Of a stretch of DNA of 64,000 nucleotides, positions 16,635-43,520 are shown one piece after another (positions within the stretch are counted from its first letter, which is position 1; every line of letters begins with the position of its first letter). The stretch is taken from IMG/VR virus record IMGVR_UViG_3300005529_000003, positions 1-64,000 of that record; one strand, 5' to 3'. This stretch comes from a virus. A model generated the notes under the pieces. It was not told the origin of the DNA. It saw nothing but the letters and a program-made list of their open reading frames with translations, and did not search any database. The position numbers were made by a program, and so were the translations under genes.

Positions 16635-17296
16635 CTCGCCTCACAAACCTCGATCCCTCTCCCGACGCCGACACGCCGCCCGTCCCACTCATCAACAACA
16701 GGCGACAAGACGTCGATAACCGCCCGAACGCCAGGACGATCGCCAAACGCGAGCGTGCCCTCCGCGCCCTCCAGATGCGTAAAGAGGGCTACTCCTTCCA
16801 GGAGATCGGTGAGGAGCTTGGGCTCAACCCGCACTACGTCTCTCAGATGGTGATTGCGGAGTTGAAGAAGATCAACAAGCTGTCGGCCGAGACACGCGAC
16901 GAACTCGTGCGGATGGAGGTCGAGCGCTGCGACTCACTCCTCAAGGCCCTCTACCCCGACCGCGGCCAGGCGAAGGTCACGGAAGTCATCCTCAAGGTAA
17001 TGGAGCGTAAGGCACGTCTGCTTGGCCTGGACGCTCCGCTAAAGCTCGAACAGGCGATCACCGTCGAGGATCTCACTCCCGAACAGCAGGCGGAGGAGGC
17101 ACGCAGGATTGGTCTTGTTCTTCTTGCTTCTGCTGAACCTCAAGCAATACCTCTCTTATCAGCGTCTGGTCAGGGCGGAATCGTGAGCGGCCTATTACCA
17201 GGCGAAACCATTGCCGTACCTGTATCTCCGTCAAACCACCCTGCTCAAGAAGTCCAAGACGCGGATTTCGAAATGAACGAGAAGAAAGACTCATGA
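16631..17296 (+). CDS. HTH protein, probable terminase small subunit
   Basis: ALQMRKEGYSFQEIGEELG...ERKARLLGLDAP; upstream of TerL. Confidence 0.65.
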   Translation: MTRLTNLDPSPDADTPPVPLINNRRQDVDNRPNARTIAKRERALRALQMRKEGYSFQEIGEELGLNPHYVSQMVIAELKKINKLSAETRDELVRMEVERCDSLLKALYPDRGQAKVTEVILKVMERKARLLGLDAPLKLEQAITVEDLTPEQQAEEARRIGLVLLASAEPQAIPLLSASGQGGIVSGLLPGETIAVPVSPSNHPAQEVQDADFEMNEKKDS

Positions 17297-17649: not shown

Positions 17650-18094
17650 GAACGCCGGCCACATCCTTCGACTCGTCGCCAACATCCTTGAACACGCCGA
17701 GCAGACGAAAGGGAAGGTTGACCTCCAGATCCTTCCGATCGGCGTACGCATCCCAGGCTTCGACCGCCCTCTCACCACAGGCGGTTACGTCCTCAAGATG
17801 GCGTACCAGCCTGGTCACGAGCAAGACAGCGGCGGCTTGCACTCTCTTGAAGGTTGTCTCGGCGAGGCAGAACTCAACCCTGACGGACTGCTTCCTTACC
17901 CTGACGCCGAGGACGTACTGGAAGCGTTGAAGCTGGCGTGTTCTTACAACGCGGATTCGGAGAAACTCGTACGCGAGTTGTTCGAGAAGAAGAACGTGCC
18001 GGTCGAAGAAGTGACGGATGCGAAAGAAGAAGTTGTGGAAGGCGTCACAAAGACGCCGCCGAAAGGTTTCAAGCTTGTTGGCGTTGATGATTAG
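17630..18094 (+). CDS. Hypothetical protein
   Basis: Operon position and codon use. Confidence 0.55.
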   Translation: MKMKLSKNAGHILRLVANILEHAEQTKGKVDLQILPIGVRIPGFDRPLTTGGYVLKMAYQPGHEQDSGGLHSLEGCLGEAELNPDGLLPYPDAEDVLEALKLACSYNADSEKLVRELFEKKNVPVEEVTDAKEEVVEGVTKTPPKGFKLVGVDD

Positions 18095-18539
18095 GTTTGC
18101 AACGAGCGTCTTTCTTCATCGCTTTCTTACCGATCTTTGCAAGCTTCTTCCAAAAACTACGAATGACGTCTGGACGCTTTTTGAAGCTGATTGGAAACAT
18201 GGCGGGTTCTACTTTTCTGCCTCTTTCCTTTGACTCTTCCAACCACCTATAAGACCAAAGTCTAGCCAGATTTGAAACGTCGTCGGGTCTGGTAGTCCAG
18301 CAGACACAACTACTCAAAAATTGGTTGGAATTGTTGTACAGATACTCCAACCACAATTGTCCGCCTGTTTCCTTGATCCCCCTTGCGATTGCTCTCGCCC
18401 TCTTCTCTCTCTTTGATTCGCCTTCTTGGTCAAATAGCCAGTCGGCGTAGATTAGCCATTCATCTTCTTTTGCCCACCGTGGCTCTTTAACTTCCACCAC
18501 TTTCTCTTCTCCTTGCAATGACCAATGACCAACGACCAA
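18069..18539 (-). CDS. TIGR02996-like domain protein (paralog of 24015-24452)
   Basis: WLIYADWLFDQ...RARAIARGIKETGG...FWKKLAKIG; true start may lie downstream. Confidence 0.65.
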   Translation of the reverse strand: MVVGHWSLQGEEKVVEVKEPRWAKEDEWLIYADWLFDQEGESKREKRARAIARGIKETGGQLWLEYLYNNSNQFLSSCVCWTTRPDDVSNLARLWSYRWLEESKERGRKVEPAMFPISFKKRPDVIRSFWKKLAKIGKKAMKKDARCKPNHQRQQA

Positions 18540-19460
18540 CTCAAACAGCTTGTTGACGCTGTCTTAGTCTACGCTGAACGTATTAACCGCTCCACTCTCG
18601 AAGCGTCGATTGTCGAACACACTCGCCGTCTTGTTGCGAGTGCAGGGCCTTCGGCTCTCATGACTTACTTGAAGTCGCACGGGCTTGCGAACGTCGTCGA
18701 TCCGCCGTCTACAACGCCACCACCTTCTCCATCTCCTACACCGACGACTCAACCAAAGCGGTTCATTCAGGTCGTCAACCAGTCCACGAGCGTTCCGAAA
18801 GACGAGTTCCTGAAAGTCGTCGCCGCCGTCCAGAAGCAAATCTCTCAAGACTTTGTCATCTTCTGGGGGCTTGACTGCGTCCTCTCGCCCGTCATGGCGT
18901 CCTCGACGACGTTCGTCCAGCCGAAAGTCGAAACGCTGTACGTCCTTGATGACAGCGACCAGGCAGGAGCGCTTGGCTACCACACGCTCACCGACGCCGA
19001 CGTCCCTGTGGGGTTCGTATTCGCCAGGACGACGAAGAAGAGCGGCGGGCAGTGGTCGGAGACGCTCTCGCACGAGGTCCTGGAGCAGCTCGCTGATCCA
19101 TTCGTCACGACTGCGGCCGTTGTGAACTTCCTTGGTAAGCCCCGCGCCGTTGCTTACGAGACGGCTGACCCTGTAGAGGCCGACTCCTACGCCATCGATG
19201 GCGTCAGTGTGTCTAACTTCGTCACGCCTCAGTGGTTCCAGGACTTCCTGCCGCCGACCGACATCAAGCTCGACTTCCTCGGGCGACTTAAGAAGCCCTT
19301 GACGCTGACTCCAGGCGGCTACGTCGCTTACTCCACTGATCTGATGAACTGGGAAAACTACTTCGCGTCTCACGACCTCCTCACCAAGGCGGCGGTCGTT
19401 AGGTCGCACCGTGAGAAGATTGATGAGTGGTGTCGCAGGAGTCGTCGTAACTCCCACTAG
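18525..19460 (+). CDS. Putative zincin-like metallopeptidase with Pro/Thr linker
   Basis: GALGYH, SETLSHEVLEQLADP, YETADPVE, VSNFVTPQWF. Confidence 0.55.
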   Translation: MTNDQLKQLVDAVLVYAERINRSTLEASIVEHTRRLVASAGPSALMTYLKSHGLANVVDPPSTTPPPSPSPTPTTQPKRFIQVVNQSTSVPKDEFLKVVAAVQKQISQDFVIFWGLDCVLSPVMASSTTFVQPKVETLYVLDDSDQAGALGYHTLTDADVPVGFVFARTTKKSGGQWSETLSHEVLEQLADPFVTTAAVVNFLGKPRAVAYETADPVEADSYAIDGVSVSNFVTPQWFQDFLPPTDIKLDFLGRLKKPLTLTPGGYVAYSTDLMNWENYFASHDLLTKAAVVRSHREKIDEWCRRSRRNSH

Positions 19461-20114
19461 TCATTCTTTATCGAGAAGTAAGTCGAGAACCCAGCACCCT
19501 CGAAGGTGTTCGTTCCTTCCACGACAATGAGAGAGGATGTCAGCGTCCTCGCAGCCGGCGTCTTCGAGAGCGTCAGCGAGGATGGGCATTCCTGAGAAGT
19601 CCTGATTGGCGTAGCACTCCGTGGCGATCTGGATAACGCTAGGAGTGAGCCAGTTCTTTTCGACTGATGGCACAGCCGTCCACAAAGGATCACCGAAGAG
19701 TTCTTCTAGCAGCCCCAGGACATTGACAACTCTTCCTGATTCTGGTTTGTTGTCTTTCACTGCTCGATCGATGGTTTGGCTTGCTGCTGATACTCCAGAC
19801 TCGTCATACACTATCCAGCCTTTTGCGATGTCTACAAGATTCGCTTTATCGATCAAGCCGTCTGCGTATTTCTTTGCATTCCATGTCGCCTTAATCAGCT
19901 TTTTGAAATGCGAAATCGTATGGGTATAGAAGGTCGTCCGTTCCAGATCTTCTCGCCTCTTTTGTTTAGCCCAGTCAAGCCCTAGCTTTGCATACTCTTC
20001 CCAGTAGTAACAACTAAAGAGTCGGAACTTTCTTTCTGATGGACGCACTGCTTTCAAGTGCTGGAAGATCGCCCACAAATCATCCTTGTCAGTTTTCGAT
20101 TCTTTTGTATTCAT
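19461..20114 (-). CDS. Gemmata-type LADAL-DAGC family protein
   Basis: SERKFRLF...MPILADALEDAGC...SHCRG...HLRGCWVLDLLLDKE. Confidence 0.75.
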   Translation of the reverse strand: MNTKESKTDKDDLWAIFQHLKAVRPSERKFRLFSCYYWEEYAKLGLDWAKQKRREDLERTTFYTHTISHFKKLIKATWNAKKYADGLIDKANLVDIAKGWIVYDESGVSAASQTIDRAVKDNKPESGRVVNVLGLLEELFGDPLWTAVPSVEKNWLTPSVIQIATECYANQDFSGMPILADALEDAGCEDADILSHCRGRNEHLRGCWVLDLLLDKE

Positions 20115-20128
20115 CGATCGCCTCGTAA

Positions 20129-21643
20129 GTGTCTTCCCTTCGCGTAGTTACTCGTGAATCGCCCCTCGTGGACCGCATCAAGCGGGCCTACGAACTCGCT
20201 GACAGCGTCTCCTCGCAGTCCGCTTTGGCGTACCTCAACCACGTCGTCATCAACTCAGAGCCGACTCCAAGGCGTTTCGGTGACGTGGCGAAGGACTGGC
20301 AGAAGATCCTCAACCAGCGGATCTTGCCGGCCGTCGAGTACGTCACGGGTGTTCGCACGGAGTACAGCGGGCCTCGGTCGTTCTGGATCACCCTCGCCCG
20401 TGGTCACGACAAGACGGGGGCGATCGGAAGACTTTGTAACTGGGCTTTGGCTTATACCCGTCGTTACATCAACTGTATTGCGTGTGCGAAAGACCGCGAC
20501 CAGGCGAACTTCCTACTCGAGTCCATGCAGGTCGAGGCAAACCTCAACCCGTGGCTGAAGAGGCGGCTTGAGTTCGCCAACTACAAGGTGACGGGGAAGG
20601 CGTCAGGCAGCGTTCTCAAGGCTGGAGCATCAGACGCAGCCGGCAGCTTCGGTGCTCGTGGCGACCTTATCGTCCTGGACGAGTTGACGCACTGGGAGAC
20701 GCGGGGGCTTTGGGACACGATCATGAGCGGCGCTGAGAAGCGTCGTAATCGTGTCGTCGTCATTATCACGAACGCTGGGCTGAAGCATTCGTGGCAAGAA
20801 GAAGAACTCCAGAAGATCAAGAAGTTCGCCCGCCTCCCGCAGACGAAGTGGTGGGTCTACGAAGCACCTGGAAGACTCGATACCTGGATGAACGAGGAGG
20901 CGATCCAGCGCGAATCGATCCTGCTTCCGCCCGCCACAGCTCGTAGGGTGTTGTTCAACCAGTGGATCGACCCTGGAGAAGAGAGCGGGTTCGTCACTCG
21001 CCAGGAGGTCGATTGCTGTTCAGAACTTGGCAAGCGACTACAGCTCACCTATCGAGATTCCCCTCACAACAAGGACGTCGAGCACTTCGCGGCCATCGAC
21101 TACGGGCCTGTCAAGGACCGCACCGCCCTCTGTGTCCTCCACCAAAGACCGGAAGACAACATCCTCGTCATTGACCGCCTCGACATCATGCAGGGATCTC
21201 GCGGTTGTCCTGTGTCGATCGAGGCTGTTGAACGGTGGATAGATGAGGTTCGCTCGAAGTTCCGTCTCGCTGCTGTCGTCATCGACCCGTATCAGATGGA
21301 GTCCACGATCCAGCGTTACACAGGTGTTGTCCCGATTGAGCGATTCGAGGCTCGTGGGGGGAAGTCGAACTACGAACTCGCCGCTAACTTGCGTGCGTTG
21401 ATCGTTAACAAGCAGATCGCCTGGTATGCGGACTGTGGAGGAATACCTAAAGAAGGAAGGATGCACTCACTTGACGACGAGCTGATCGAGTTGATCGTCA
21501 AGCAGATGGGGTACGGCTTCAGGATCGACCACTTGCCGTCTCTGCATGACGACCGTTGTGTTTGCGTCGGGATGGCGGCGCTCCACTGCGTTCAACGAGG
21601 GCGTCGAGTACTTCTTCCAGACGATCTGACGCAATGGTTTTAA
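20129..21643 (+). CDS. terL: Terminase large subunit
   Basis: Walker A-like ARGHDKT, Walker B IVLDE, IITNAG, nuclease AIDYG...DRTA and HDD. Confidence 0.85.
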   Translation: MSSLRVVTRESPLVDRIKRAYELADSVSSQSALAYLNHVVINSEPTPRRFGDVAKDWQKILNQRILPAVEYVTGVRTEYSGPRSFWITLARGHDKTGAIGRLCNWALAYTRRYINCIACAKDRDQANFLLESMQVEANLNPWLKRRLEFANYKVTGKASGSVLKAGASDAAGSFGARGDLIVLDELTHWETRGLWDTIMSGAEKRRNRVVVIITNAGLKHSWQEEELQKIKKFARLPQTKWWVYEAPGRLDTWMNEEAIQRESILLPPATARRVLFNQWIDPGEESGFVTRQEVDCCSELGKRLQLTYRDSPHNKDVEHFAAIDYGPVKDRTALCVLHQRPEDNILVIDRLDIMQGSRGCPVSIEAVERWIDEVRSKFRLAAVVIDPYQMESTIQRYTGVVPIERFEARGGKSNYELAANLRALIVNKQIAWYADCGGIPKEGRMHSLDDELIELIVKQMGYGFRIDHLPSLHDDRCVCVGMAALHCVQRGRRVLLPDDLTQWF

Positions 21644-22004
21644 TCTTACCGGCAAGCATCAACGCCTTCGCAAGAGCGAACTCCGCCTTGATGATCGACG
21701 AAAAAAAATTGAACCACTTCGTTTTTGTAGTCGTATCACCGTCTTCCATTTGTTCAAAGACATCTCTGTTAATGCAGAAGTTGGGGTCTTTGGCATTTGG
21801 GTACTTCACTCCATCACCCCAAACGTTATCTCCGTCGGAGTGTTCGTAGCTGGCGTACTGATGTTCGATTAACCAGCGTTGAGTTTCAGCGAGAACGTCT
21901 GTGATATCCGTGAACTGATCCTCGAGCCAGTCAGCAAACACAGAGCGAAGCTCCCAGTTCTGCTTGTCCTCCTCGATTTGCTTGTACCAGTCATCGATCG
22001 TCAT
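21519..22004 (-). CDS. TIGR02996-like domain protein
   Basis: MTIDDWY...LRSVFADWLEDQ...AEFALAKA. Confidence 0.7.
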   Translation of the reverse strand: MTIDDWYKQIEEDKQNWELRSVFADWLEDQFTDITDVLAETQRWLIEHQYASYEHSDGDNVWGDGVKYPNAKDPNFCINRDVFEQMEDGDTTTKTKWFNFFSSIIKAEFALAKALMLAGKIKTIASDRLEEVLDALVERSGAPPSRRKHNGRHAETASGRS

Positions 22005-22420
22005 GCTTGCTCTTTCTCCTTGCTGGTTCTAATGACTTGTTCTCCGAAGAACCGCTCCAGCTTCAATAGGCTCCCGTTCGTAAACCACCACCTTGTATAC
22101 AACTCCTGATTTTCAAAACTGTATTTAGTCGGCGATGTCTCGAATACCTCCTTGACCTTCTTGGCCGGGAGCAAACATGAGGTCCATTTTGACTTCTTGT
22201 ACAAATCGTTGTCGTCTCTACCTAACTGGAAAAATGCGGGGAACGGAACCGTCGACTGTTCACGTTGAAATAAAGGGCTTATGCCTGTCGCCAGGAAGAT
22301 CTCCTGGGCCACTAAACACCACTCAACATCATTGTCGAATGCCCAATCACGCAACGCCGCCCTAGCCGCAAAGTCTCCAGGGTCCTTTTCGAGAATTGTG
22401 TACCAGTCGTCGATTGTCAT
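22001..22420 (-). CDS. TIGR02996-like domain protein
   Basis: MTIDDWY...DPGDFAARAALRDWAFDN. Confidence 0.65.
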   Translation of the reverse strand: MTIDDWYTILEKDPGDFAARAALRDWAFDNDVEWCLVAQEIFLATGISPLFQREQSTVPFPAFFQLGRDDNDLYKKSKWTSCLLPAKKVKEVFETSPTKYSFENQELYTRWWFTNGSLLKLERFFGEQVIRTSKEKEQA

Positions 22421-22445
22421 TAGTCTGCCTCCGAGCCTATCGTCA

Positions 22446-22619
22446 TTATCGAATCTCCTTTACGGTCGCGGTCATCTTCTCCAGATCGAACTCAACGATG
22501 ATTTGCTCGCCATACCTGATCCACTTTTTCAGCTTCTCGCGGATTTCGTCCTCGTTTTCTTTATCGGCGACGGCCCACTCAACGGCGTCAGGCGTCTTGA
22601 ATGTGATGGATACCTTCAT
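22446..22619 (-). CDS. Small conserved phage hypothetical protein
   Basis: MKVSITFKTPDAV...KWIRYGEQIIVEFD; AGGAG upstream. Confidence 0.65.
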   Translation of the reverse strand: MKVSITFKTPDAVEWAVADKENEDEIREKLKKWIRYGEQIIVEFDLEKMTATVKEIR

Positions 22620-22660
22620 AACTCGATCTCCTTTGAATGAGCAGAAAGAGAAAATTTCGC

Positions 22661-22689
22661 TTGACACGCACCATCGACTCTCTTAACCT
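22661..22689 (+). promoter_or_regulatory. Candidate sigma70 promoter
   Basis: TTGACA-N17-TAACCT upstream of 22757. Confidence 0.45.
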
Positions 22690-22756
22690 GAACGGCTGAG
22701 TGTTCGTTCATTCACCAGAGAGTTAAGAACGAAGAAGAAAGAAGGAGACGACTGCG

Positions 22757-23236
22757 ATGGCGCGAAAGAAGAAGCCTGTCTTCACCGACGACGAAGCCGC
22801 ATTGACTGACGAACCAGAAACTCCCGCGGCTTCTCCAACGTCCAGCAATGAAGAAGTCCCGACGTCCAGTTCGTCCTCGCCCTCTACTCCTGCGAGTCAA
22901 GAGCGTACCATGTCGAAAGCAGATGCGATCAGGACGATCCTCGACCGCGGCCTGACGTCCTCCCCCAGCGAGGTCGTGTCGATCGTCAAGGCGGAGTTCA
23001 ACATGGACGTCACGCCCGCTCAGGTGTCGGGGCTGAAAAACAAGAAGTCGCCAGACAGACCCTCCACAATCGCCAGGAGGACGCCTGCTGGTGTTTCGTC
23101 TGTCTCTCGAAGTGGAACTCTCAGTGGTGGCAAGGGCATCACACTGGACGACCTGGAACAACTCAAGGAGATGGCTGACAGACTCGGCGGCTGGGAGCAG
23201 TTGAAGGAGATCGTCGGCTTCATCGCCGCCTGGTAG
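22757..23236 (+). CDS. Planctomycete-type small putative DNA-binding protein
   Basis: SKADAIR...PSEVVSIVKAEFNMDVTPAQVS..K and LDDLEQLKEMADRLGG; strong AGGAG. Confidence 0.6.
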   Translation: MARKKKPVFTDDEAALTDEPETPAASPTSSNEEVPTSSSSSPSTPASQERTMSKADAIRTILDRGLTSSPSEVVSIVKAEFNMDVTPAQVSGLKNKKSPDRPSTIARRTPAGVSSVSRSGTLSGGKGITLDDLEQLKEMADRLGGWEQLKEIVGFIAAW

Positions 23237-23261
23237 TTCTCGGTCGATACTGACAGACAAA

Positions 23262-23293
23262 AGGCCCGCCTGACTAACAATCAAGCGGGCCTT
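23262..23293. terminator. Hairpin between convergent genes
   Basis: AAGGCCCGC...GCGGGCCTT. Confidence 0.6.
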
Positions 23294-23705
23294 CTTCGTT
23301 TGCGATTGTCGGTAGGGGTTCATTCCATTTGACCTTCGGTGCCCACTCCTCAAGCAGCCAGATCCAGGGGTCTACTTCTTTGTGGGCTTCTTTCTTGAAC
23401 GTTTTCCAGCTTGTCTTTTCTTCTACTCTTGCGTCCAGGTCTTCGTGAGTGTTCTCTCCTGGAATATCCAGGTAACGTTGAGTACATAAATACCAGTCCC
23501 AGGAACTACTTAACTCAACAGGGTACTTCTCGTTCTTGATTGCCCATCGTACTGCCGCCAATGCTTCCTGGCAGTCTGCCTCCTCTAGCAAGTCCTGAAG
23601 AGCCATCTTTGCTGCCTCGTTCTTGTTGACCATCGCGTCTTCAAGGCACTGGATCATCACCGAGGTCAATGTCTTCTTTTGTGTCTGTGTCGTCTGTGTC
23701 GCCAT
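23274..23705 (-). CDS. Divergent TIGR02996-like protein
   Basis: AKMALQDLLEE...AVRWAIKNEKYP. Confidence 0.55.
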   Translation of the reverse strand: MATQTTQTQKKTLTSVMIQCLEDAMVNKNEAAKMALQDLLEEADCQEALAAVRWAIKNEKYPVELSSSWDWYLCTQRYLDIPGENTHEDLDARVEEKTSWKTFKKEAHKEVDPWIWLLEEWAPKVKWNEPLPTIANEEGPLDC

Positions 23706-24018
23706 CTTCGTTGACCTCCACGTCGAGTTTCTTTAGCCGCTTGCCAGGAATGAAACGGTAGCGTGCGACCTCCTCTTTTGCCCCCACAAAGCCGCCTTGA
23801 TAATTGAGGGCACGACACAAGACGTCCTTCGTCAGCTTGTTCGTAGTGATCTTGAAGACGATGATTTCTCCTGCACACACTGGCGACGACTTCTCGCCAG
23901 TTACTTCCGTCTCTGCGGCGATCCCCTTCTTCACTGCTGACATCGAGGGGTAGTAGAAAGTGTCAAGCTCTTCGTCTTCGTTGACGTTGAACGGGAACTG
24001 GACTGCGTAAATGATCAT
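23641..24018 (-). CDS. Hypothetical protein
   Basis: Coupled ORF in the minus-strand arm. Confidence 0.55.
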   Translation of the reverse strand: MIIYAVQFPFNVNEDEELDTFYYPSMSAVKKGIAAETEVTGEKSSPVCAGEIIVFKITTNKLTKDVLCRALNYQGGFVGAKEEVARYRFIPGKRLKKLDVEVNEDGDTDDTDTKEDIDLGDDPVP

Positions 24019-24452
24019 TGAAGTTCTTTTGCTCCAATCTTTTCGAGGGTTTTCCAGAAATCTGTTACTAATTTTTGTGACAGAAAGAAAGCCTTTGGGT
24101 GAGTAAAAGGGCTTAGTGGCCCTGTGTGAATCCCAAGGGTTTTATCAGGGGGATCGTTTTTTGCTTTTCTTTCGTGCCACTTGTAACCATTTTCCTCTCC
24201 CTTTAAAAACTCTGCTTCTTTGTTTCTTTCTCGGTGTTCAGAGTAATGAATGAGTGCGTTTACTTCTAACTCACCCCCGAGTCCGCCCCACCATAAGAAC
24301 AGCGTGCCTCCAGTTTTTTTGATCCCGGCAGCGATCTTGCGTGCCTTCTCCGCTCCTTCGTAGTCGCCCTGGTCGAAACAGAAGTCCGAGTATACGAGCC
24401 AGTCCGTTTCTTCGACACTCTCTTTAGGCTCCTGGACGACGACGGTCTCCAT
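24015..24452 (-). CDS. TIGR02996-like domain protein
   Basis: WLVYSDFCFDQGD...KARKIAAGIKKTGG...FWKTLEKIG. Confidence 0.65.
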   Translation of the reverse strand: METVVVQEPKESVEETDWLVYSDFCFDQGDYEGAEKARKIAAGIKKTGGTLFLWWGGLGGELEVNALIHYSEHRERNKEAEFLKGEENGYKWHERKAKNDPPDKTLGIHTGPLSPFTHPKAFFLSQKLVTDFWKTLEKIGAKELQ

Positions 24453-24457
24453 TGCAG

Positions 24458-24700
24458 TTACTCCTTTGTATCTTGCTCAGGTCGAATCCTCGTCGCCGTG
24501 TAGCGACTCCAGTTCGTCATGGGCATATGGATTTCACCCGTGATCCTGTACTTGCCGCCGTCGATCGCCAGCAAGCTCATATGTTCTAAACCGCTCTGGT
24601 CGATGAAAGAGACTTCGTCAGCCGGTAGTGGCGATGGCGTCTTCACGATCTTCACTCTCTTTCTTTTTCGCTTTCGCTTTCGTTTTTTGGTCTTTTTCAC
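24458..24700 (-). CDS. Hypothetical protein with a KR-rich N-terminus
   Basis: KKRKRKRKRKR; fills a gap. Confidence 0.5.
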   Translation of the reverse strand: MKKTKKRKRKRKRKRVKIVKTPSPLPADEVSFIDQSGLEHMSLLAIDGGKYRITGEIHMPMTNWSRYTATRIRPEQDTKE

Positions 24701-24706
24701 AGTCGT

Positions 24707-25291
24707 TCATTGAAGTAAATGAGAGATGCGGTTGTTTGACACTACTTCTTGCAACTCCTCTTGATGTCCAGACAGCGTGTACTCCATCCGGTAAGCATCT
24801 TCGCCGTGCTCTTTATTGTCGAGGTCGTAGTAGTCCGGCAGCACCTTGACTCCCTTGAAGCCTTGAGCCTTGAAGAAGTTCTGGGCCTGGAGGTTCGTCT
24901 CCCGCACGCACAGGCCGATCTTCGTTCTCCTGTGGTCGGCGAGCTTGTCTTTTAACAGCGTCACCATGCTTGCCCCGACGCCTCCGTTGATTTCCTTCGA
25001 TCGTCCCGCACTCCTCATCACGACTTGATTCATTCGACGGCAGGAAGGAGCAACAGCGAGGTTCAGAATTTCGAGGCGATGTTTGTGAAGTTCGTACACG
25101 ACGAACCCGACGACCTTCTCGTCAATTTCTCCGACCATCCCAATCGCGTTTCGTTGACGGAGGACCCTCAAGAAGTCCTCGGGCGTCCATTGATGCTCGA
25201 AGCTCAACTGCTCGATCTCGTTCACCTCGTCCATATCTCGGCGGATCATCCAGCGAATCCAGACTTCCTTCAACCTGTTCTTGATCGTCAT
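24707..25291 (-). CDS. rimI: RimI-like N-acetyltransferase (planctomycete type)
   Basis: IRWMIRRDM, LRQRNAIGMV, YELHK, ILNLAV, VRETNLQAQNFF, EDAYRM. Confidence 0.85.
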   Translation of the reverse strand: MTIKNRLKEVWIRWMIRRDMDEVNEIEQLSFEHQWTPEDFLRVLRQRNAIGMVGEIDEKVVGFVVYELHKHRLEILNLAVAPSCRRMNQVVMRSAGRSKEINGGVGASMVTLLKDKLADHRRTKIGLCVRETNLQAQNFFKAQGFKGVKVLPDYYDLDNKEHGEDAYRMEYTLSGHQEELQEVVSNNRISHLLQ

Positions 25292-25326
25292 GTTGAGGTT
25301 TCCTTTCTTTCTTCTCGCGAACGCGG

Positions 25327-25737
25327 TTAGAGTTTGAAGCGGCCCGCGAGCATTTCTTCGAGCGTCTCGAGCCCTTTACCGAGAGCGAAGACGGCTTGAT
25401 GGAAAGATCCGTAGGTCTTGTACTTGAATGTGCTCCCACTACTCTCGGGAAGCGCCAGGAACAGCGAGGCAGGCAGACGCATGGTGCTCTCCTGGTTCAA
25501 GTCTTGCCGGAAGTCTGCTCTTCTTGCTCTCCAGTAGCCCCTCATCCAGATGTGACGACGAGCTTTTGGGCGGTCGTCTGCTTTCACTGGACGTTTCGCA
25601 GACTTTGCCATCCACCGCAACGCTTTCTCTTCTGTAGGCTTGCCGTTGTCGTTACACCAGTCAGCGCAGGCGAGCATATCAACGCCTGAAGATTTCAGTG
25701 GGTCGGAGAGGAGCTTCATCCAGTCTTGAATTAACAT
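25327..25737 (-). CDS. TIGR02996-like domain protein
   Basis: LACADWCNDNG...ALRWMAKSAKRP...LPASLF...AVFALGKG. Confidence 0.65.
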   Translation of the reverse strand: MLIQDWMKLLSDPLKSSGVDMLACADWCNDNGKPTEEKALRWMAKSAKRPVKADDRPKARRHIWMRGYWRARRADFRQDLNQESTMRLPASLFLALPESSGSTFKYKTYGSFHQAVFALGKGLETLEEMLAGRFKL

Positions 25738-26150
25738 TTGCTTTCCTCTGTTTGCTTTTTCTTCACTGAATTTCTTGCCTTGAAGAGAGCTTCATCCGCT
25801 TGTTGAAGCGTTCTATAGCTGCGAAAATTGTAATCTGTACTCATTCCGAGAAATTCAGGTAACTCTTCCCAAATGTCGTCTTCAATTGCGTTCAATATGT
25901 ACTCATCCTTGACTCTGTGTTCTCCTTTCCACCAGCACCAGTTTTCGATTCCGTATATAGCCTTCTCGCTTTCGTAGTACGATGCTAACTGGTTGTTCTT
26001 TTGGCACCATAAGATGAAGTCGGCATATTCCTCGTCGCCCTCTTCATCGACGAGCCACATTCTGAACCACTCTCGCGCTTCCTTTAGTGGACTAAGGTTG
26101 TTTCTATCGAACTTATCTTCCATGATCTTATACCAGTCTGCCTTCGTCAT
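25731..26150 (-). CDS. Divergent TIGR02996-like protein (paralog of 31605-32054)
   Basis: MTKADWYKIME...WLVDEEGDEEYADF...ADEALFKA. Confidence 0.6.
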   Translation of the reverse strand: MTKADWYKIMEDKFDRNNLSPLKEAREWFRMWLVDEEGDEEYADFILWCQKNNQLASYYESEKAIYGIENWCWWKGEHRVKDEYILNAIEDDIWEELPEFLGMSTDYNFRSYRTLQQADEALFKARNSVKKKQTEESKC

Positions 26151-26352
26151 TTCGATTCTCCTACTACCGCCTTCCTGATGGCACAAGGATGCGCAAACCT
26201 CTCCCGTTGATTTTTGAGGGAGAGTGTTTGCGTATCCCGCAACGATGTTCTTAGTCCTTACACATAATCTTGATCCACCAGCCGAATCCGAAGATCACCA
26301 CAACCACGGCTATCACTCGGACGATTTCAACAATGTTCTCTTCACTCACGAG

Positions 26353-26601
26353 TTACTCCTTCGCGTCGATCCTTTTGAAGATCTGTCCGTCGCCCACTTC
26401 ACCAAGCTTACGAATCTCATGACATGGAATGCCGATACAGAAACCTTGAACGTGTGTGATTCCTTTCCTTAATGCATTCTGGTCGCTTGCGTACTTACTG
26501 TTGTGGTCGATGGGCTTGATGCCAGTAATACTCTTGGCGAAGTCTTCCGACCAACCTTCAGCACACTCCCAGATCTCGCCATCAAGCTTCAAGACGATCA
26601 T
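26353..26601 (-). CDS. Hypothetical protein
   Basis: Coupled ORF with GAGGAG upstream. Confidence 0.55.
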   Translation of the reverse strand: MIVLKLDGEIWECAEGWSEDFAKSITGIKPIDHNSKYASDQNALRKGITHVQGFCIGIPCHEIRKLGEVGDGQIFKRIDAKE

Positions 26602-27299
26602 GGTGTTTCTCCTCGTTTAATCTTCTCCAACTCCGCTGTCCATAAAGGAGGGAGGGAGACTTTCTCTCGTTCAACATTCAACGCTACGATATTTAACGCC
26701 ATTCTCGCCTGCTCCTCGTTGTTGAAATAGACGAGTTCTGATTTGTCGCCCTCTGCCTTTCTTGCGTTGCGATCAATTTCTCGTAGCCGCTTGTAATAGA
26801 CCCGTGGAACATTACAGGGTTCTTCTTTCCTGTTGTTCAACTCTCTTTCATAATCGTCATAGTAGTAGCAACCTTTATGGATTACTGACTCTTCAGGCTC
26901 AACATCTTCGATACGAATCCACTTCACGGGCTGACATGGGAGGATCTTCGTCGCGTGTTCCATCCACAGTTTCAGCGGGCACTTGACAACCTCGACGAAG
27001 CCGTTGATGACCTTCGCTCTCGACGTCTTGTCGTCACTCCACTCAGGGCCCCACCTTCCTTCATCGTCCCTCGATTGTCCACACATCGCTAGACATGCCT
27101 CAAGCCCTGTGGATAGCACGCTTCCTTCGCCTCTCCTTGTCGCGAAGATGTCGTCCCTGATCCACGACGCCCACAAACTGTCCACGACTTCTCGTCCTGG
27201 TCGAGGGTGATCTTCGAGCCAGTCGGCGAACACGAGGCGGAGATCGAGGTCCTCGGGGTTCTCCACGATCGACCTGATCCACTGATCGAAGCGGTTCAC
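26598..27299 (-). CDS. TIGR02996 domain protein
   Basis: IRSIVENPEDLDLRLVFADWLED, GFVEVV, PCQPV. Confidence 0.8.
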   Translation of the reverse strand: MNRFDQWIRSIVENPEDLDLRLVFADWLEDHPRPGREVVDSLWASWIRDDIFATRRGEGSVLSTGLEACLAMCGQSRDDEGRWGPEWSDDKTSRAKVINGFVEVVKCPLKLWMEHATKILPCQPVKWIRIEDVEPEESVIHKGCYYYDDYERELNNRKEEPCNVPRVYYKRLREIDRNARKAEGDKSELVYFNNEEQARMALNIVALNVEREKVSLPPLWTAELEKIKRGETP

Positions 27300-27302
27300 G
27301 AT

Positions 27303-27497
27303 TTACTCCGCTGCTTTACGCAACCTACAAGCGATACATTTACCGCATTTATCCTCTGCAAATCTTCCGCTGGGCCGCTCACAAAAGACAGGAGTTTTAC
27401 GAACCAGTGAGCGAAGTTTTTTAAACTCTTTCAGTGCCTCTTTGACTGAATAACCTTCAAACGCCCGAATCAATTCGTCAAGCTCTCTGTTTGTCAT
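27303..27497 (-). CDS. Small hypothetical protein with C-terminal Cys cluster
   Basis: MTNRELDE...CGKCIAC; GGGGAG upstream. Confidence 0.5.
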   Translation of the reverse strand: MTNRELDELIRAFEGYSVKEALKEFKKLRSLVRKTPVFCERPSGRFAEDKCGKCIACRLRKAAE

Positions 27498-27595
27498 ACT
27501 TCTCCCCGCCTTTCTCCCGGTCGTTGAGCGTAAATAAAAAGTCCTCTCTTCTCCTTGATGAAGAAGAGAGGACTTTTTTTCGATACTCAGCACGC

Positions 27596-29257
27596 TTAAA
27601 ACGGGAATTCGACTTCCTGCTTCTTCGCCTTCTCTGTAAAGCGGAGCAGCTTGAAGATCGGCTGACTTAAGAAGTTCATCATGCCGTCGAGCGGCGTCTG
27701 ATCCTTCTTCTCCTGCTGAGTCTTCGTCTCCTCTCCTCGGAGTAGCCCCTTGAGGATCGAGGGATCGAAGCCGCTGACGAGGAAGCAGCCCTTGTCCGTC
27801 GCGAGGCACGGAAAGTCGGTCGTCTTCGCCCCGTTGACGTGCCACCAGATGATCCGCATCCCAGGCAGACCGCAAGCGGCGAGCTTTTGTCTCGCTTCTT
27901 CGTAGTTCGTCTGAGCGTTGTGATACGATCTTGCCGGCGTGCTGGCGGGGTTGAACTGCATGTCACTGACGACGAGTAGCGTTGACGGAAACGCCTCAAT
28001 AGGAGCCGAGGGGTTCTTGGCCCTTACACGGCACACGGCGTCGATCAGCGATTGGAAGTTCGTACTCCCCATTGCAGTCGGCAGTGACTTGATTTGCCTG
28101 AGCCGCTGCGTGAACGTCCCTGCGAGCTTCACGACCGTCGAGGTGTCGCTGAACATCGCTACGGCGTCCTTGCAGATCCCCGTGTTCAGCATCGAGAAGG
28201 CCACCCCGAGCGACAGGCAGACGTCGATCGGCCTGACCCCCTTGATCAGCTCACACCATCCCATCGATGCGGACGTGTCGAGGCCCACCAGGACGTCTCC
28301 GAGGCAGTGACCCTTGAGCGACTCCAGGCACGTCTCCCACTGCTTGTCGTAGAGCATGTTCTGAATCATGTTCTCCGAACGCTCTGCGGCCCTGCAAAGC
28401 TCGTACGGCTGACCTGTGAACTTCACTCTCCGCTGCTTCTCGAGCCACACACCGAAATCCTCGAACCTTCCGTGGCGCTCGATCCACGACTTCTTGTCTT
28501 GCTTCCCCTTCTGCGAGATCGCGTTCATCAACGCCTTGCCGGGGATCTTGGAGAAGTCGATAAGGTCCCATTTCTTCTGCTGCATCATTCGCTGCCAGAT
28601 GTGAGCCGGGCCAGCGGACTTCAGCTTGCGGTAGTCCTTCTCAGAGAAGCCACAGAAGGCGCAGAGGTCTTTCGCAAAGCCGATTCTCGCCTTGTCTCGC
28701 TCGCTCCTGGCCTTCTTGAACGACCGCATCGTGGGTAGATACTTCAGCAGCAGGGCTTCGTCCAGTGAAACGGCGACCAGGGAAGTCAGCAGCGTTCGGT
28801 TGACCGCAGTCAGGAGAGGCGGCTGGAGGAGGTCTTTCCACGACCCAAACACGGGAACGAGGTCGATGTTGTGTCGCAGCAGCTCGGCGTCGTTGGCGGC
28901 GAGCCATACGAGGCACTTGTAGAACTCGTCACGCCGGCCCATTCCCGTAGCGACTTCTTCGGGGCAGGTTGGGGGTTCGATTCCCTCCGGTCTGTTCGGC
29001 TTCCTCGTGATCAGTCGGAGCCCGAAGATCACCTTCAGGGCAGTCTCCCGATCGTCCTGGAAGATCGCTTCCATGTCCTTGTCTACGGCGGCTTGAGAGC
29101 GGCCGTTGTAAGTTCCACACTTTGAGAAGTATTCGAGACATCGAGCGTACTTCTCGTTGACGCCGCCGACTGCACTGTTTGAAACGGCACCGTTCCATGT
29201 CATCCCGTCCTTCCTTGTGGCGTTCTCATCTTTCAGATCGTTCATGAAGTAACTCAC
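27596..29257 (-). CDS. DUF2828-family Ro60/TROVE-like protein with vWA domain
   Basis: TWNGA, GMGRRDEF, FGSWKDL, IDFSKIPGKA; MIDAS residues LDTSASM, STNFQ, VSDMQF; IIWWHV; LVSGFDP. Confidence 0.8.
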   Translation of the reverse strand: MSYFMNDLKDENATRKDGMTWNGAVSNSAVGGVNEKYARCLEYFSKCGTYNGRSQAAVDKDMEAIFQDDRETALKVIFGLRLITRKPNRPEGIEPPTCPEEVATGMGRRDEFYKCLVWLAANDAELLRHNIDLVPVFGSWKDLLQPPLLTAVNRTLLTSLVAVSLDEALLLKYLPTMRSFKKARSERDKARIGFAKDLCAFCGFSEKDYRKLKSAGPAHIWQRMMQQKKWDLIDFSKIPGKALMNAISQKGKQDKKSWIERHGRFEDFGVWLEKQRRVKFTGQPYELCRAAERSENMIQNMLYDKQWETCLESLKGHCLGDVLVGLDTSASMGWCELIKGVRPIDVCLSLGVAFSMLNTGICKDAVAMFSDTSTVVKLAGTFTQRLRQIKSLPTAMGSTNFQSLIDAVCRVRAKNPSAPIEAFPSTLLVVSDMQFNPASTPARSYHNAQTNYEEARQKLAACGLPGMRIIWWHVNGAKTTDFPCLATDKGCFLVSGFDPSILKGLLRGEETKTQQEKKDQTPLDGMMNFLSQPIFKLLRFTEKAKKQEVEFPF

Positions 29258-29305
29258 GATCTTCTTCTCTTTCTTCTCTAGTGGTTGCTTTAACCGCTCT
29301 TCTTG

Positions 29306-29566
29306 TTACGCACACCGTCGCATCGGAGGCTTTTTGTTTTGCGGCGTAATGGTGAACTGCGGGAAGCACCTCTTGCATCCAACGTTCCCGCAGTTGCTTG
29401 AGCCTTCGTGGCCGCTCTTCTTTACGCCGCTACCGGCTCTCGGTTGTTTCTTTCGCCGACGTCCTGTGCCTGCATAAGAAGCGTAGAGAGCTTTCTTCGC
29501 CGCTTTCATCTGTTTCTTTGCCGCTTTACGCTTTTCCGCTCGGCGTTTCTTTGATGCTGCTCCCAT
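29306..29566 (-). CDS. Very basic small protein with a CGNVGCxxC motif
   Basis: K/R-rich; AAGGA upstream. Confidence 0.6.
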   Translation of the reverse strand: MGAASKKRRAEKRKAAKKQMKAAKKALYASYAGTGRRRKKQPRAGSGVKKSGHEGSSNCGNVGCKRCFPQFTITPQNKKPPMRRCA

Positions 29567-29600
29567 GAGATTCCTTTTCTTTCTTCTTGTGGAAATAAAA

Positions 29601-29648
29601 CAGAACGCTTAACCGATTGCATTGGTAAGAAGTTGCTGTGAGCGTTCT
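29601..29648 (-). ncRNA. ACAGCA-motif small RNA
   Basis: AGAACGCT-CACAGCAAC...AGCGTTCT-G. Confidence 0.75.
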
Positions 29649-29657
29649 TTGTCTTGT

Positions 29658-29867
29658 TCACCCTGCTGATTCTTTCACGACTTTGTAGACTCGTCTCTCG
29701 TCACTCAATAGTTTCTCGAGATCTGCGAGATTGTCATTTTTAACACTGAAGGCCCACCGATCGCTATTAACGAGTGGGTGGGCTTTTACCTCCTGGTTGT
29801 TCGTCCAGTGCCACCACATTGCGCTCAGTACTCCGTAGTATTCAACAATCACCAATGAATGTGTCAT
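29658..29867 (-). CDS. Hypothetical protein
   Basis: MTHSLVIVEYY; GAGG upstream. Confidence 0.5.
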   Translation of the reverse strand: MTHSLVIVEYYGVLSAMWWHWTNNQEVKAHPLVNSDRWAFSVKNDNLADLEKLLSDERRVYKVVKESAG

Positions 29868-29883
29868 TTGTTGAAACCTCTTT

Positions 29884-30081
29884 TCAACACTGGTCGTTGA
29901 CTGCTGGTACTGGCTTTTCGATTTTCGTGTCTCGGTCGAGGAGTTCGTCCCGAACGATGTTGACATCCGGAGGAGCCTCAATCCCGATGCGGATTCGATT
30001 TCCTCGGACTTCGAGAATCTTCACCTTTATGTCTCCATCAATGATCAACGATTCGCCGACCTTGCGAGAGAGTACGAGCAT
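29884..30081 (-). CDS. csrA: Carbon storage regulator CsrA/RsmA
   Basis: MLVLSRKVGESLII...IRIGIEAPPDVNIVRDEL. Confidence 0.92.
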   Translation of the reverse strand: MLVLSRKVGESLIIDGDIKVKILEVRGNRIRIGIEAPPDVNIVRDELLDRDTKIEKPVPAVNDQC

Positions 30082-30083
30082 AT

Positions 30084-30290
30084 TCACTTTCCCTTCCGAC
30101 TCTTGTAGATGTAACCATTCACTCCGATGATGATCTTCTCACCATTGAACTCGGCTTCTGTCGTCTTGTTGCCATGTGTGGACGCCACGACGAGCGTCTT
30201 GCCACTCGCTGACTCGCGGGCCTCCTTGTAAAGTGGTAGCCGGATCACTAGTTCGTCGCCTTCAATCTTCGCTGAAACTTCATTCGCCAT
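30084..30290 (-). CDS. Conserved small hypothetical protein
   Basis: SASGKTLVVASTHGN motif; AAGGAG upstream. Confidence 0.7.
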   Translation of the reverse strand: MANEVSAKIEGDELVIRLPLYKEARESASGKTLVVASTHGNKTTEAEFNGEKIIIGVNGYIYKSRKGK

Positions 30291-30316
30291 CCATCGTCTC
30301 CTTCTAGTGTTAAAAA

Positions 30317-30545
30317 CGAAACGCCGTAGGGTTCTTTTGCTTTACCGTTAAGCTACTCCCCCTGAGTACCGCTACGGTAAATACCGTATAACGCCCGCGG
30401 CCGGCGACTCGATTAAAACTTCGACTGTTAAACGATTCGCGACTCGTAACCGTCTGCGTAGACTATCGAGCGTGATCTAGAGGGGGAGGCGGGAGTCGAA
30501 CCCGCATCAAAAGATTAATGTAAGTAAGTTTGCTGTCGGCGTTTC
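30317..30545 (-). ncRNA. YrlA-like permuted tRNA-mimic RNA with a 117-nt acceptor-loop insert
   Basis: Stem+GACAGCAA, then T arm GCGGG-TTCGACT-CCCGC, CTCCCCCT...AGGGGGAG, D arm TAGCTTAACGGTAAAGC, closing stem. Confidence 0.8.
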
Positions 30546-30563
30546 TTGTTATGTGCAAGAAAA

Positions 30564-30675
30564 CGAAACACCGTCTTTTCATCTTTCGCGTCTACCAGTT
30601 CCGCCACTCAAAAGCTTTCGCTGTTGAGGTGGGACTCGAACCCACATGATAAAGAGTTAATGCTGTTGGTGTTTC
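30564..30675 (-). ncRNA. YrlA-like permuted tRNA-mimic RNA
   Basis: Stem+AACAGCA, T arm GTGGG-TTCGAGT-CCCAC, GAAA-capped acceptor, D arm TGGCGGAACTGGTAGACGC, closing stem. Confidence 0.85.
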
Positions 30676-30685
30676 TGAGAAGGTT

Positions 30686-30771
30686 AGACAGCAACTCCAG
30701 GCTCTTTACCTTTGGCGGGACTGGCTTCTCGCCAGTCCCGCCTACGCATTGCACGTACGGAGTTGCTGTCT
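30686..30771. ncRNA. Self-complementary ACAGCAA element
   Basis: 13-bp inverted repeat AGACAGCAACTCC/GGAGTTGCTGTCT around a 12-bp GC hairpin. Confidence 0.6.
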
Positions 30772-30781
30772 GTGTATTAAA

Positions 30782-30831
30782 CGGAACGCTTGACCTTTGG
30801 TGATGGTGGTTGAGGTTGCTGTGAGCGTTCC
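30782..30831 (-). ncRNA. ACAGCA-motif small RNA
   Basis: GGAACGCT-CACAGCAAC...AGCGTTCC-G. Confidence 0.75.
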
Positions 30832-30977
30832 TGGCTTCTGTACGGCCTTAAAGTTTTCTCTCCTTCACTGAGGACAAGAGAAGACTTTTCACGGAGGAGG
30901 ACGCGCCGTGAGTGACAACATCATGAGGGCGACGAGCAACAACGCGGCGATGTACGGAATCGCCTCAACGATACGTT

Positions 30978-31451
30978 TCATTTGAGTTCTCCTCGGGCTT
31001 TCCTGAGCGAGTTCTGGTACTCTCTCGGATGTTTGCTCTTCCACTTCACCCACGCTGGTAGAAGGATCTTATATGCCCCACAGCACGTCGGGCTTTCGGC
31101 ATATTGTAGTGTGTACTTGTGTTTATCCTCTATAATTACGAAAAGACGACTGGGTAAAGCTGCTGGCGATTGTTTTGAAGTCTCGTTTACGCACCCATCA
31201 AAATTTTGCCAGTCAAACGAAAGCGTGTCCCATCTACTCTTCGTTGTGCCCCACCTTCCTGATTCATAAGCTTCCTGACTAACCGTGTGGATAAAAGGTC
31301 TTAGCTCAAGCTCCCACACCCACCGCCAGAACTCAGCCTCCTCCAGGCGGTCGTTGTCCTCGAGCCAGTCGCAGTAGTACGGGAGGTCCTTGAGTTTCCC
31401 CTGCTCGATCCTGGCGAGAAAGCCCTCCTCTGTTCTTTCTGTGGTGGTCAT
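30978..31451 (-). CDS. TIGR02996-like domain protein
   Basis: EEGFLARI...YYCDWLEDNDRLEEAEFWRW...LPSRLF. Confidence 0.7.
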   Translation of the reverse strand: MTTTERTEEGFLARIEQGKLKDLPYYCDWLEDNDRLEEAEFWRWVWELELRPFIHTVSQEAYESGRWGTTKSRWDTLSFDWQNFDGCVNETSKQSPAALPSRLFVIIEDKHKYTLQYAESPTCCGAYKILLPAWVKWKSKHPREYQNSLRKARGELK

Positions 31452-31604
31452 CTCTAGTACCTCGTATCTTGTTCTGAGTGGATCAAATCCTCGCTGTCTC
31501 TGAACTCGACGTCGGCGTACGTCAACGACTCTTCGCCTGAGACTTTCTTACCTGCGTGAAATAACATCCAGGAGGCGAAGAGTAGAGGCAGGGCGATGAG
31601 TTGC

Positions 31605-32054
31605 CTAATAAACCAGAGCGCTTTCATTCTTTGCTCTTTCTTGTTTTTCTTCTCGCCATTCTTTCCAGGCGTTGAAGAGTGCCTCTTCTGCGTTCTGAAG
31701 AGATGAAAACCCTTTCCATCCTTCTTGTTTTCGTTCCCTCTTCACTTTGTCGAAGAGTTCCTTACAGAGGTAATCTCCTCTGTTCTCTTTAACTCCTATT
31801 GGTTCCCCAGGCCAGTAAGACCAATCTTCCTTGCCGTCACCTGTTGTCGTTCCTCCATATCCGTAGAGAGAAGGCAGCAGCTTCCTCTCAAGCAGCCACT
31901 CCTGAAATTGTGCGAAGTAGTCGTTGTCTTCCTCGTCGCGAATCCACCAGATGAACGCCTCCTTGCTTGAAGGTGCTCTTAGCCTTTCGCAGCGTTCATC
32001 CCAGTAGTCCTTAACCTCTTGTTCGAGGATCTTGTACCAGTCACTCCTCGTCAT
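31605..32054 (-). CDS. Divergent TIGR02996-like protein
   Basis: MTRSDWYKILE...WIRDEEDNDYFAQF...AEEALFNA. Confidence 0.6.
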   Translation of the reverse strand: MTRSDWYKILEQEVKDYWDERCERLRAPSSKEAFIWWIRDEEDNDYFAQFQEWLLERKLLPSLYGYGGTTTGDGKEDWSYWPGEPIGVKENRGDYLCKELFDKVKRERKQEGWKGFSSLQNAEEALFNAWKEWREEKQERAKNESALVY

Positions 32055-43104: not shown

Positions 43105-43148
43105 AGACCGCGGCCTCTACTCCTTGCGAAGTAGAAGCTGCGGTCTTC
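43105..43148 (-). terminator. Intrinsic terminator
   Basis: AAGACCGCGGC...GCTGCGGTCTT followed by a long T run on the minus strand. Confidence 0.65.
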
Positions 43149-43160
43149 TCGTTCACACGA

Positions 43161-43520
43161 TTAGAAGTGGATGCGACACAGCGTCTTGCGATATTTGATG
43201 AATCGCTCTGTGTACATCCTGCGGATCTTGTAGTCGGGGTGCTGTTCCGACTGTCGCTTTATGTACTGCATCTCTTCGACACACTTCTCTCTAAAGAATA
43301 GGAGGTCGTCGCTGCTGAGGTCCACGATGCACTCGTAGAGACGCTGGAGCGTGGAGAGGGTGCAGAGGCCGCCACACGCGAGGAACGCCATCCAGGCGTC
43401 CGCGATGGAGTGAGAGGGCCTGGTGATTCGACGCGGTTCACACACGATGAGGATCGTGAGCACGAGGGCCGCGAAGAAGATCAGACAGAGGGTGAGACGC
43501 AGAATCGACAACTCGTTCAT
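43161..43520 (-). CDS. Hypothetical membrane protein
   Basis: N-terminal TM segment; AGGAG upstream. Confidence 0.55.
   Translation of the reverse strand: MNELSILRLTLCLIFFAALVLTILIVCEPRRITRPSHSIADAWMAFLACGGLCTLSTLQRLYECIVDLSSDDLLFFREKCVEEMQYIKRQSEQHPDYKIRRMYTERFIKYRKTLCRIHF

Follow-up and report, generated by a model that had tools for sequence, protein, structure and literature searches.

The virus genome IMGVR_UViG_3300005529_000003 (IMG/VR) encodes eleven members of a family of small proteins that, as judged by profile similarity, share an N-terminal head with the TIGR02996 proteins of Gemmata-like bacteria. Nine of the eleven lie in the window, by which we mean the whole stretch of DNA analysed here, the first 64 kb (64,000 nucleotides) of the 94,830-bp record; the other two (76258-76731 and 76728-77183), like every coordinate above 64 kb, come from a scan of the whole genome. 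These proteins are homologous, are built on a common architecture, have expanded within this phage, are associated with phages more widely and are accessory to the genome that carries them. A first-pass annotation of this DNA had listed ten minus-strand open reading frames (ORFs) in the window as TIGR02996-like proteins. All ten ORFs exist; nine are related at the profile level and expanded within the phage, and one, 23274, is unsupported as a member. We favour the explanation that this is a lineage-specific accessory multigene family of phages, whose diverged head-tail copies would act as a set of binders or inhibitors, and we put the probability of this explanation at roughly one half.

The record carries direct terminal repeats and is rated complete by CheckV. 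The only public sequencing run that holds the stretch is soil metagenome DNA, which is probably its source; no RNA run with it was listed. With genes for the terminase large subunit, portal, prohead protease and HK97-type capsid, and for a tyrosine integrase, it is a temperate tailed phage.

The eleven copies are given below, and each is named in the text by its first coordinate. A phmmer search with 26598 against 1.84 billion representative proteins returned 316 proteins at E<1e-3, mostly of 180-260 amino acids (aa) and matched along their full length. The foreign profile hidden Markov model (HMM) was built from 140 of these, with no phage sequence included. Only 26598 carries all three parts of the foreign proteins, a head, a core and a tail; the other ten (eight within the window, two at 76.3-77.2 kb) have no core and, at 136-161 aa, are called minis here.

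18069..18500, minus strand: head with its own C-terminal half, 143 aa from GTG 18500 (ORF to 18539), paralog of 24015
21519..22004, minus strand: mini, 161 aa, clear head and weak tail; genome-free profile E 2e-10, head-only HMM E 5e-5
22001..22420, minus strand: probable mini, 139 aa, linked only via its neighbour 21519, which it overlaps by 4 nt
24015..24452, minus strand: head with its own C-terminal half, 145 aa; TIGR02996 13.2 bits, foreign HMM E 0.017; paralog of 18069
25327..25737, minus strand: mini, 136 aa, head and weak tail, basic (isoelectric point, pI, 9.7); foreign HMM E 2e-5
25731..26150, minus strand: mini, 139 aa from ATG 26150 (ORF to 26186), diverged head and clear tail, paralog of 31605
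26598..27299, minus strand: full-length member, 233 aa; head at about 3-55, a linker of low confidence, the beta/alpha 'RGFV' core at about 94-150 and the helices of the tail at 166-228
30978..31451, minus strand: mini, 157 aa, head and tail with a disordered middle; foreign HMM E 8e-6, TIGR02996 14.2 bits
31605..32054, minus strand: mini, 149 aa from ATG 32054 (ORF to 32120), diverged head and tail, paralog of 25731
76258-76731 and 76728-77183, outside the window: minis with their own C-terminal halves, a paralog pair

A HMMER search with TIGR02996, the check named in the first-pass annotation, recovers the family in part. The curated NCBIfam model, which has 45 positions, carries a cut-off of 29.05 bits that 26598 alone passes (35.9 bits; 38.7 bits in a six-frame scan). 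Below the cut-off, 18069, 21519, 24015 and 30978 match at 10-14.5 bits (per-genome E 7e-4 to 1.4e-2), TIGR02996 being the sole NCBIfam match for the first three and the better of two weak ones for 30978; the other five listed ORFs have no TIGR02996 match in the NCBIfam search. A six-frame scan of the whole genome with the same model gives seven places at per-genome E ≤ 0.015, two of them new and beyond the window. By the curated rule the ten copies besides 26598, which score about 10-21 bits or go unreported, are non-members, and at the profile level they are relatives. Pfam holds nothing significant for any of the ten ORFs, and across Pfam, NCBIfam and PHROGs the minis match nothing beyond TIGR02996, save one weak and unrelated PHROG match of 21519. 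Among the ORFs searched against PHROGs, 26598 alone has a match below 0.01 (phrog_18306, E 0.006), and this covers the head only.

The evidence that carries the family comes from profiles built on foreign relatives. When the foreign HMM is searched against the 628 ORFs of at least 50 aa, its ten best matches are 26598 (6e-43), 30978, 25327, 21519, 25731, 76728, 18069, 24015, 76258 and 31605 (0.095), and the eleventh-ranked ORF falls at E 0.52. A second profile, made of the foreign sequences plus two minis from other phage contigs and none from this genome, finds the identical ten ORFs. In leave-one-out searches on the joint alignment each member is the first sequence retrieved from outside the training set, with E 1e-13 to 2e-3, and a profile of the foreign head alone finds seven copies beyond 26598 at E ≤ 0.1. 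The head is N-terminal in all eleven copies, the matched region beginning within the first 45 residues or so. The first-pass annotation had said that the family would fall if most of the ORFs did not align to each other or to TIGR02996 at the profile level; nine of the ten are related. Word-indexed homolog searches with 26598 and with 18069/24015 returned these proteins themselves and one weak head match only.

Within the genome there are three full-length paralog pairs. The in-genome pairs are reciprocal best matches and are just 26-32% identical, therefore the duplications are old. The pairs proposed earlier hold up along their full length for 18069/24015 (28% over 145 aa, E 4e-11) and for 25731/31605 (26% over 145 aa), whereas 21519 and 22001 resemble each other at the N-terminus only (45% identity over residues 1-29). 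The place of 22001 in the family follows from this neighbour: its leave-one-out E is 2e-3, both foreign-only profiles miss it, and hhalign places it in register with the foreign alignment at a probability of only 2%. The head of 21519 is 52% identical to that of 26598 over 27 aa.

The head is matched in 18069 (TIGR02996 14.5 bits, or 16.6 bits and E 7e-4 per genome in the six-frame scan; head-only HMM E 1e-4), which stands alone on the minus strand between the genes of the two terminase subunits, with AAGGAG upstream of its GTG at 18500, the likely start; its paralog 24015 has 41 invariant columns in our alignment A1. The mini 30978 matches positions 31-58 and 153-214 of the foreign profile, and 25327 matches the head-only HMM at E 9e-4, the tail-only HMM at E 0.19 and, by blastp, 30978 at E 3e-3. 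For 25731 the foreign HMM gives E 6e-4. For 31605 its tail domain has an independent E-value of 5e-3 and leave-one-out gives E 3e-5. A purine tract precedes the ATG of both (AGGAG before ATG 26150 and GGAG before ATG 32054). The N-terminus of 25731, MTxxDWYK, is common to three paralogs, and the motif is shared by four members, which places the probable start of 25731 at 26150 and that of 31605 at 32054. The members are the longest ORFs at their loci, have Shine–Dalgarno-like purine tracts 10-16 nt upstream of their starts, and overlap adjacent genes by 4-7 nt at 21519/22001, 25327/25731 and 76258/76728.

The ORF that could not be confirmed as a member, 23274..23705 on the minus strand, encodes an acidic, Trp-rich protein of 143 aa. 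In leave-one-out it ranks 17th at E 3.5 and hhalign places it out of register; it has no NCBIfam or PHROGs match and a single Pfam match far below cut-off (Mog1, E 0.22). MAFFT sets it in register, but such a placement is no test of membership.

The architecture of the family is best read from the foreign stand-alone proteins. These have about 230 aa in three parts: a TIGR02996 head of three helices, a beta/alpha core, and a helical tail. The core motif, 'RGFV..V.CPL..W..HG..I....PV..V.L', is strongly conserved among the foreign proteins. Their tail comprises a W.W, an 'LP..LF' helix, a short strand and an 'A..ALS.A...WAR' helix. A core-only HMM finds 26598 at E 1e-17 and every other six-frame piece of the genome at E ≥ 0.19, so the core missing from the minis is not encoded separately. 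The minis match the foreign profile at two collinear places, head and tail, with the core skipped, and MAFFT gives the same register. In about five of them head and tail are both present, separated by a short Trp-rich stretch of variable sequence and predicted disorder. In 18069/24015 and in 76258/76728 the head alone remains, and each pair has a C-terminal half of its own. The earlier description of conserved ends and a variable middle is borne out by the profiles, by MAFFT and by the AlphaFold2 (AF2) model of 30978, in which the middle is poorly ordered. The W..P ... A..AL..A tail that it also described is real, but less general than was claimed. With the tail-only foreign HMM it is significant in 25731 (2.6e-4) and 26598 (3.3e-4), borderline in 31605 (0.058) and 25327, and not significant by itself in the rest (21519 3.7; 30978 outside the top 16); within the full profile the tail domains of 30978 and 21519 have independent E-values of 0.037 and 0.64.

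The AF2 model of 26598, made with the foreign-family alignment A3, reaches a predicted local distance difference test score (pLDDT) of 87 and a predicted template modelling score (pTM) of 0.85. In the model of the mini 30978 (pTM 0.68) the head (8-47) and the tail (101-152) are confident, and the middle falls below pLDDT 50 at 54-58 and 68-96. No match at E<1 is found by Foldseek in the PDB or BFVD, and no solved structure in the PDB resembles the stand-alone family, apart from weak VIA-align matches to tetratricopeptide repeat (TPR)-like folds: residues 1-62 of 26598 resemble TPR-like helical hairpins at Z 5-6.6, and the mini reaches Z ≤ 4.1. A Pfam TPR_15 match is seen in one of 41 family members (E 2e-3). 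In Pfam, even with matches admitted up to E 10, no phage copy resembles a leucine-rich repeat (LRR) or any other repeat family. The members are rich in tryptophan (2.5-6.7%, against 1.66% genome-wide) and span a pI range of 4.6-9.7.

In bacteria the family is concentrated in a few groups. Almost all of the 80 best bacterial loci are from Planctomycetota, chiefly Gemmatales (Gemmata, Limnoglobus, Fimbriiglobus, Frigoriglobus and Urbifossiella), with a few from Pirellulaceae, Isosphaera, Myxococcaceae and Acidobacteriota. Two Gemmata genomes have 65 and 79 TIGR02996 heads, a metagenome-assembled genome (MAG) of Pirellulaceae has 44 and a Myxococcaceae MAG has 34. The range is narrow all the same, with a strong match in just 4 of 401 evenly sampled Planctomycetota genomes. 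Per Mb of genome, simple arithmetic gives about 116 copies for the phage and about 8 for the Gemmata genomes. Three foreign giant proteins of 1,600-3,200 aa (P0004, P0005 and P0095) bear 5-12 TIGR02996 heads along their length, which shows that the head can be an internal repeat as well as an N-terminal cap.

The stand-alone head-core-tail family is largely phage-borne. In IMG/VR, the family is present at 35 loci in 33 other contigs, where 20 kb of sequence has 1-6 members. Some of these are minis made of head and tail (L086:8667-9134 and L093:10675-11055) and some are tail-only ORFs; the genes within 10 kb of the members encode terminase, portal, MuF, capsid, helicase and methylase proteins. 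In the Atlas, viral members make up 50-69% of the three feature-nearest clusters and 92% of one structure-nearest cluster. One of the contigs that bear family members, IMGVR_UViG_3300013121_000037, encodes a protein of 982 aa (L114:11955-14903, plus strand) in which a Mu-type portal (Portal_Mu, E 1e-38) is joined to a C-terminal ADP-ribosyltransferase toxin domain (ADPrib_exo_Tox, E 9e-15).

Several known systems invite comparison. In the TIGR02996 ('rpt_mate_G_obs') proteins of Gemmata and its relatives, of other Planctomycetota and of some Myxococcota, a head is typically followed by LRR_6-type repeats. The phage copies have in common with them the N-terminal head of about 45 residues and the signature 'RLVyADWLEE.G..RAEFIR', but they lack LRR or other repeats; their bodies consist of core and tail, of tail alone, or of private C-terminal halves. 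The TIGR02996 model presumably describes a head followed by a repeat region (LRR, WD40 and so on), a 'repeat-companion', and no phage copy fits this. Closer is the unnamed stand-alone family itself (316 representative clusters, for example P0009, P0011, P0018 and P0025), which is annotated at most as 'TIGR02996 family'. It resembles 26598 along the whole length, the minis by the head and about five of them also by the tail; ten of the eleven copies differ from it in having no 'RGFV' core, and 18069/24015 and 76258/76728 also in replacing the tail by C-terminal halves of their own. PHROG 18306 has the head (profile positions about 3-44) in common with 26598 and with stand-alone members of other phage contigs (E 1e-4 to 6e-3); its body differs, since its remaining 200 or so positions do not match. 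Expansions of host-type modules in viruses are known from the ankyrin/PRANC genes of poxviruses and the SUKH immunity genes of phages. By analogy, the present family may be likened to these as a set of many diverged copies of a small, putatively protein-binding, host-shared module in accessory regions. It differs in having no relation to them in sequence or fold, and a host partner is established in those cases only.

The genes that frame the family in this genome are as follows.

16631-17296: terminase small subunit-like gene with a helix-turn-helix
19461..20114, minus strand: LADALE-family protein, 217 aa, alone on the minus strand, directly ahead of the terminase large subunit
20129-21643, plus strand: terminase large subunit gene
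24707-25291, minus strand: RimI-like GNAT acetyltransferase (TIGR01575 75 bits, below cut-off; Acetyltransf_1 E 3e-12)
29884-30087, minus strand: CsrA homolog (Pfam CsrA, E 2e-22), between a DUF2828/DUF7788 gene and structured RNAs
45453-46700: tyrosine integrase
51555-53018: portal

The closest phage that we found, G001 (94.7 kb), is 50-55% identical in terminase, portal and capsid. Neither G001 nor a second relative, G002 (terminase 50% and 45% identical, respectively), has any member of the family by the TIGR02996 model, by tblastn or by our own profiles, and its absence from the related G001 marks the family as accessory in the present phage. The genes for the small and large terminase subunits adjoin in G001 (42181-42723 and 42626-44167); here they lie 2.8 kb apart, and in the gap plus-strand genes alternate with two lone minus-strand genes, 18069 and 19461. 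The remaining members are in a 30-kb leftward block that also holds the RimI-like GNAT, the DUF2828/DUF7788 protein, the CsrA homolog and an AAA_33 kinase.

Some further features of this region deserve mention in their own right. The terminase large subunit and the portal are separated by 30 kb, which divides the packaging and head module in an unusual way, and the gap is filled by the leftward accessory block and the integrase. The 3′ ends of the mini gene 21519-22004 (minus strand) and of the terminase large subunit gene (plus strand) overlap convergently by 125 nt, at 21519-21643. The GNAT gene stands amid family members, and a counterpart of 27% identity is found beside the terminase genes of G001.

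Relatives of the terminase at 31-38% identity occur in 17 of 401 sampled Planctomycetota genomes, against none of 401 from the phylum of the Myxococcaceae MAG, which supports Planctomycetota as the host phylum. TIGR02996 is absent from the five Planctomycetota genomes whose prophage terminases are closest (35-38% identity), which means that the host order does not follow from the terminase. The host is probably a Gemmatales-like, TIGR02996-rich bacterium, as the shared family, the sole pointer to it, suggests.

A second family accompanies the first. The C-terminal module of 19461, 'LPILADALEDAGCEDADIL.HCR ... H.RGCWVLDLLL' ('LADALEEAGC ... RGCWxLDLLL'), defines this LADALE family; an HMM of five proteins from other phage contigs finds 19461 at E 1e-19. 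Four other phage contigs (L093, L094, L109 and L112) have LADALE homologs next to genes of the TIGR02996 family, some of the homologs with an inserted CxxC...CxxC zinc ribbon. The LADALE family is possibly kin to the TIGR02996 family. Homology of its module with the TIGR02996 head is not established (hhalign in register, probability 4%), and 23274 could not be placed in the LADALE family either.

How might these observations be explained? In the explanation that we favour, the copies arose by old duplications within the phage lineage; they are inserted where modules meet, either on the opposite strand or in translational coupling with a neighbour. Head and tail would together make up a protein-binding scaffold, small, helical and TPR-like, and the diverged copies may be binders or inhibitors for different proteins of the host or of rival phages, during infection or lysogeny. 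Several results weigh against this explanation. The tail homology is significant by itself for just 2-4 minis, and the AF2 model of the mini 30978 rests on an alignment that was built assuming homology. The TPR-like similarity is too weak to carry a function (Z<8, values that are common among helical proteins). No close orthologs were found in the homolog searches or in related phages, and the 80 bacterial loci have no recurrent neighbour of the host-genome copies that would hint at a pathway.

Could there be no family at all, with an acidic amphipathic 'ADWLE' helix recurring by chance in unrelated small ORFs? The motif is short, ten of the eleven copies fall under the curated cut-off, and single-sequence hhalign probabilities are just 2-4%. 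We nevertheless give this scarcely any credence: ten ORFs are the top ten of 628 at E ≤ 0.1, where about 0.1 would be expected by chance, with two independent foreign profiles; the two modules match separately and in collinear order; three paralog pairs align along their full length; and every head is N-terminal. A role for the copies as packaging or morphogenesis helpers in virion assembly is suggested by position. Here 18069, 21519 and 22001, together with 19461, flank the terminase large subunit, and elsewhere members lie within a few kb of terminase large subunit (L087), portal (L100 and L114) or capsid (L090) genes. Such a role is very improbable, because the nearest related phage, G001, assembles without any copy; moreover, an assembly factor does not need eleven diverged copies, most of the copies are in the leftward accessory block with CsrA, GNAT and kinase genes, and dozens of copies are found in bacterial genomes.

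The remaining explanations concern the host or its other phages. Like the SUKH-type immunity families that phages have acquired, the copies might each counteract a toxin or defence effector of its own, whether from the host or from competing phages. Many-copy, fast-diverging small proteins of widely varying charge in a temperate phage with an integrase would suit this, but no toxin genes adjoin the copies here, no neighbour recurs in 80 host loci and there is no similarity to any Pfam or NCBIfam immunity family, so that we regard immunity or exclusion as distinctly improbable. Alternatively, the copies might be decoys that mimic host proteins, their heads docking on a hub used by the host's dozens of TIGR02996-LRR proteins and, as they lack the core or the repeats, titrating or rewiring what may be an adaptor or immune network. 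In two Gemmata genomes, proteins with this head are found 65-79 times, the core-less minis resemble the form expected of a dominant negative, and a constant head with a variable body is typical of hub-docking receptor families, which by analogy may extend to this one. However, the phage heads score 8-39 bits, against 55-94 bits for the listed Gemmata heads, and are therefore far from close copies of host heads, unlike a mimic that keeps its docking surface. They are closest to the stand-alone family, most of it carried by phages, and not to the LRR proteins of the host, and our literature search, in which no paper mentioned TIGR02996, points to neither a hub nor a function of the host family. 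We therefore consider decoys unlikely. A related and slightly less likely idea is that the TIGR02996 head is the docking module of a hub in Gemmata-like bacteria, with the minis as dominant-negative or retargeting adaptors diversified in an arms race; in its logic such a hub is comparable to F-box/LRR receptors or to a family of innate-immune sensors.

Few paralog families of Gemmata-like planctomycetes and of some myxobacteria are as large as the TIGR02996 proteins, and four findings provide a first experimental handle on this orphan family. Phages have a branch of it of their own; in one phage about 8% of the genes belong to it; most of that phage's copies are reduced to a head-plus-tail scaffold around a variable middle; and the nearest related phage, G001, has no copy. 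These findings add to the sparse knowledge of the phages of Planctomycetota. The phage copies are small and easily expressed, and their partners would point to the role of the family in the host.

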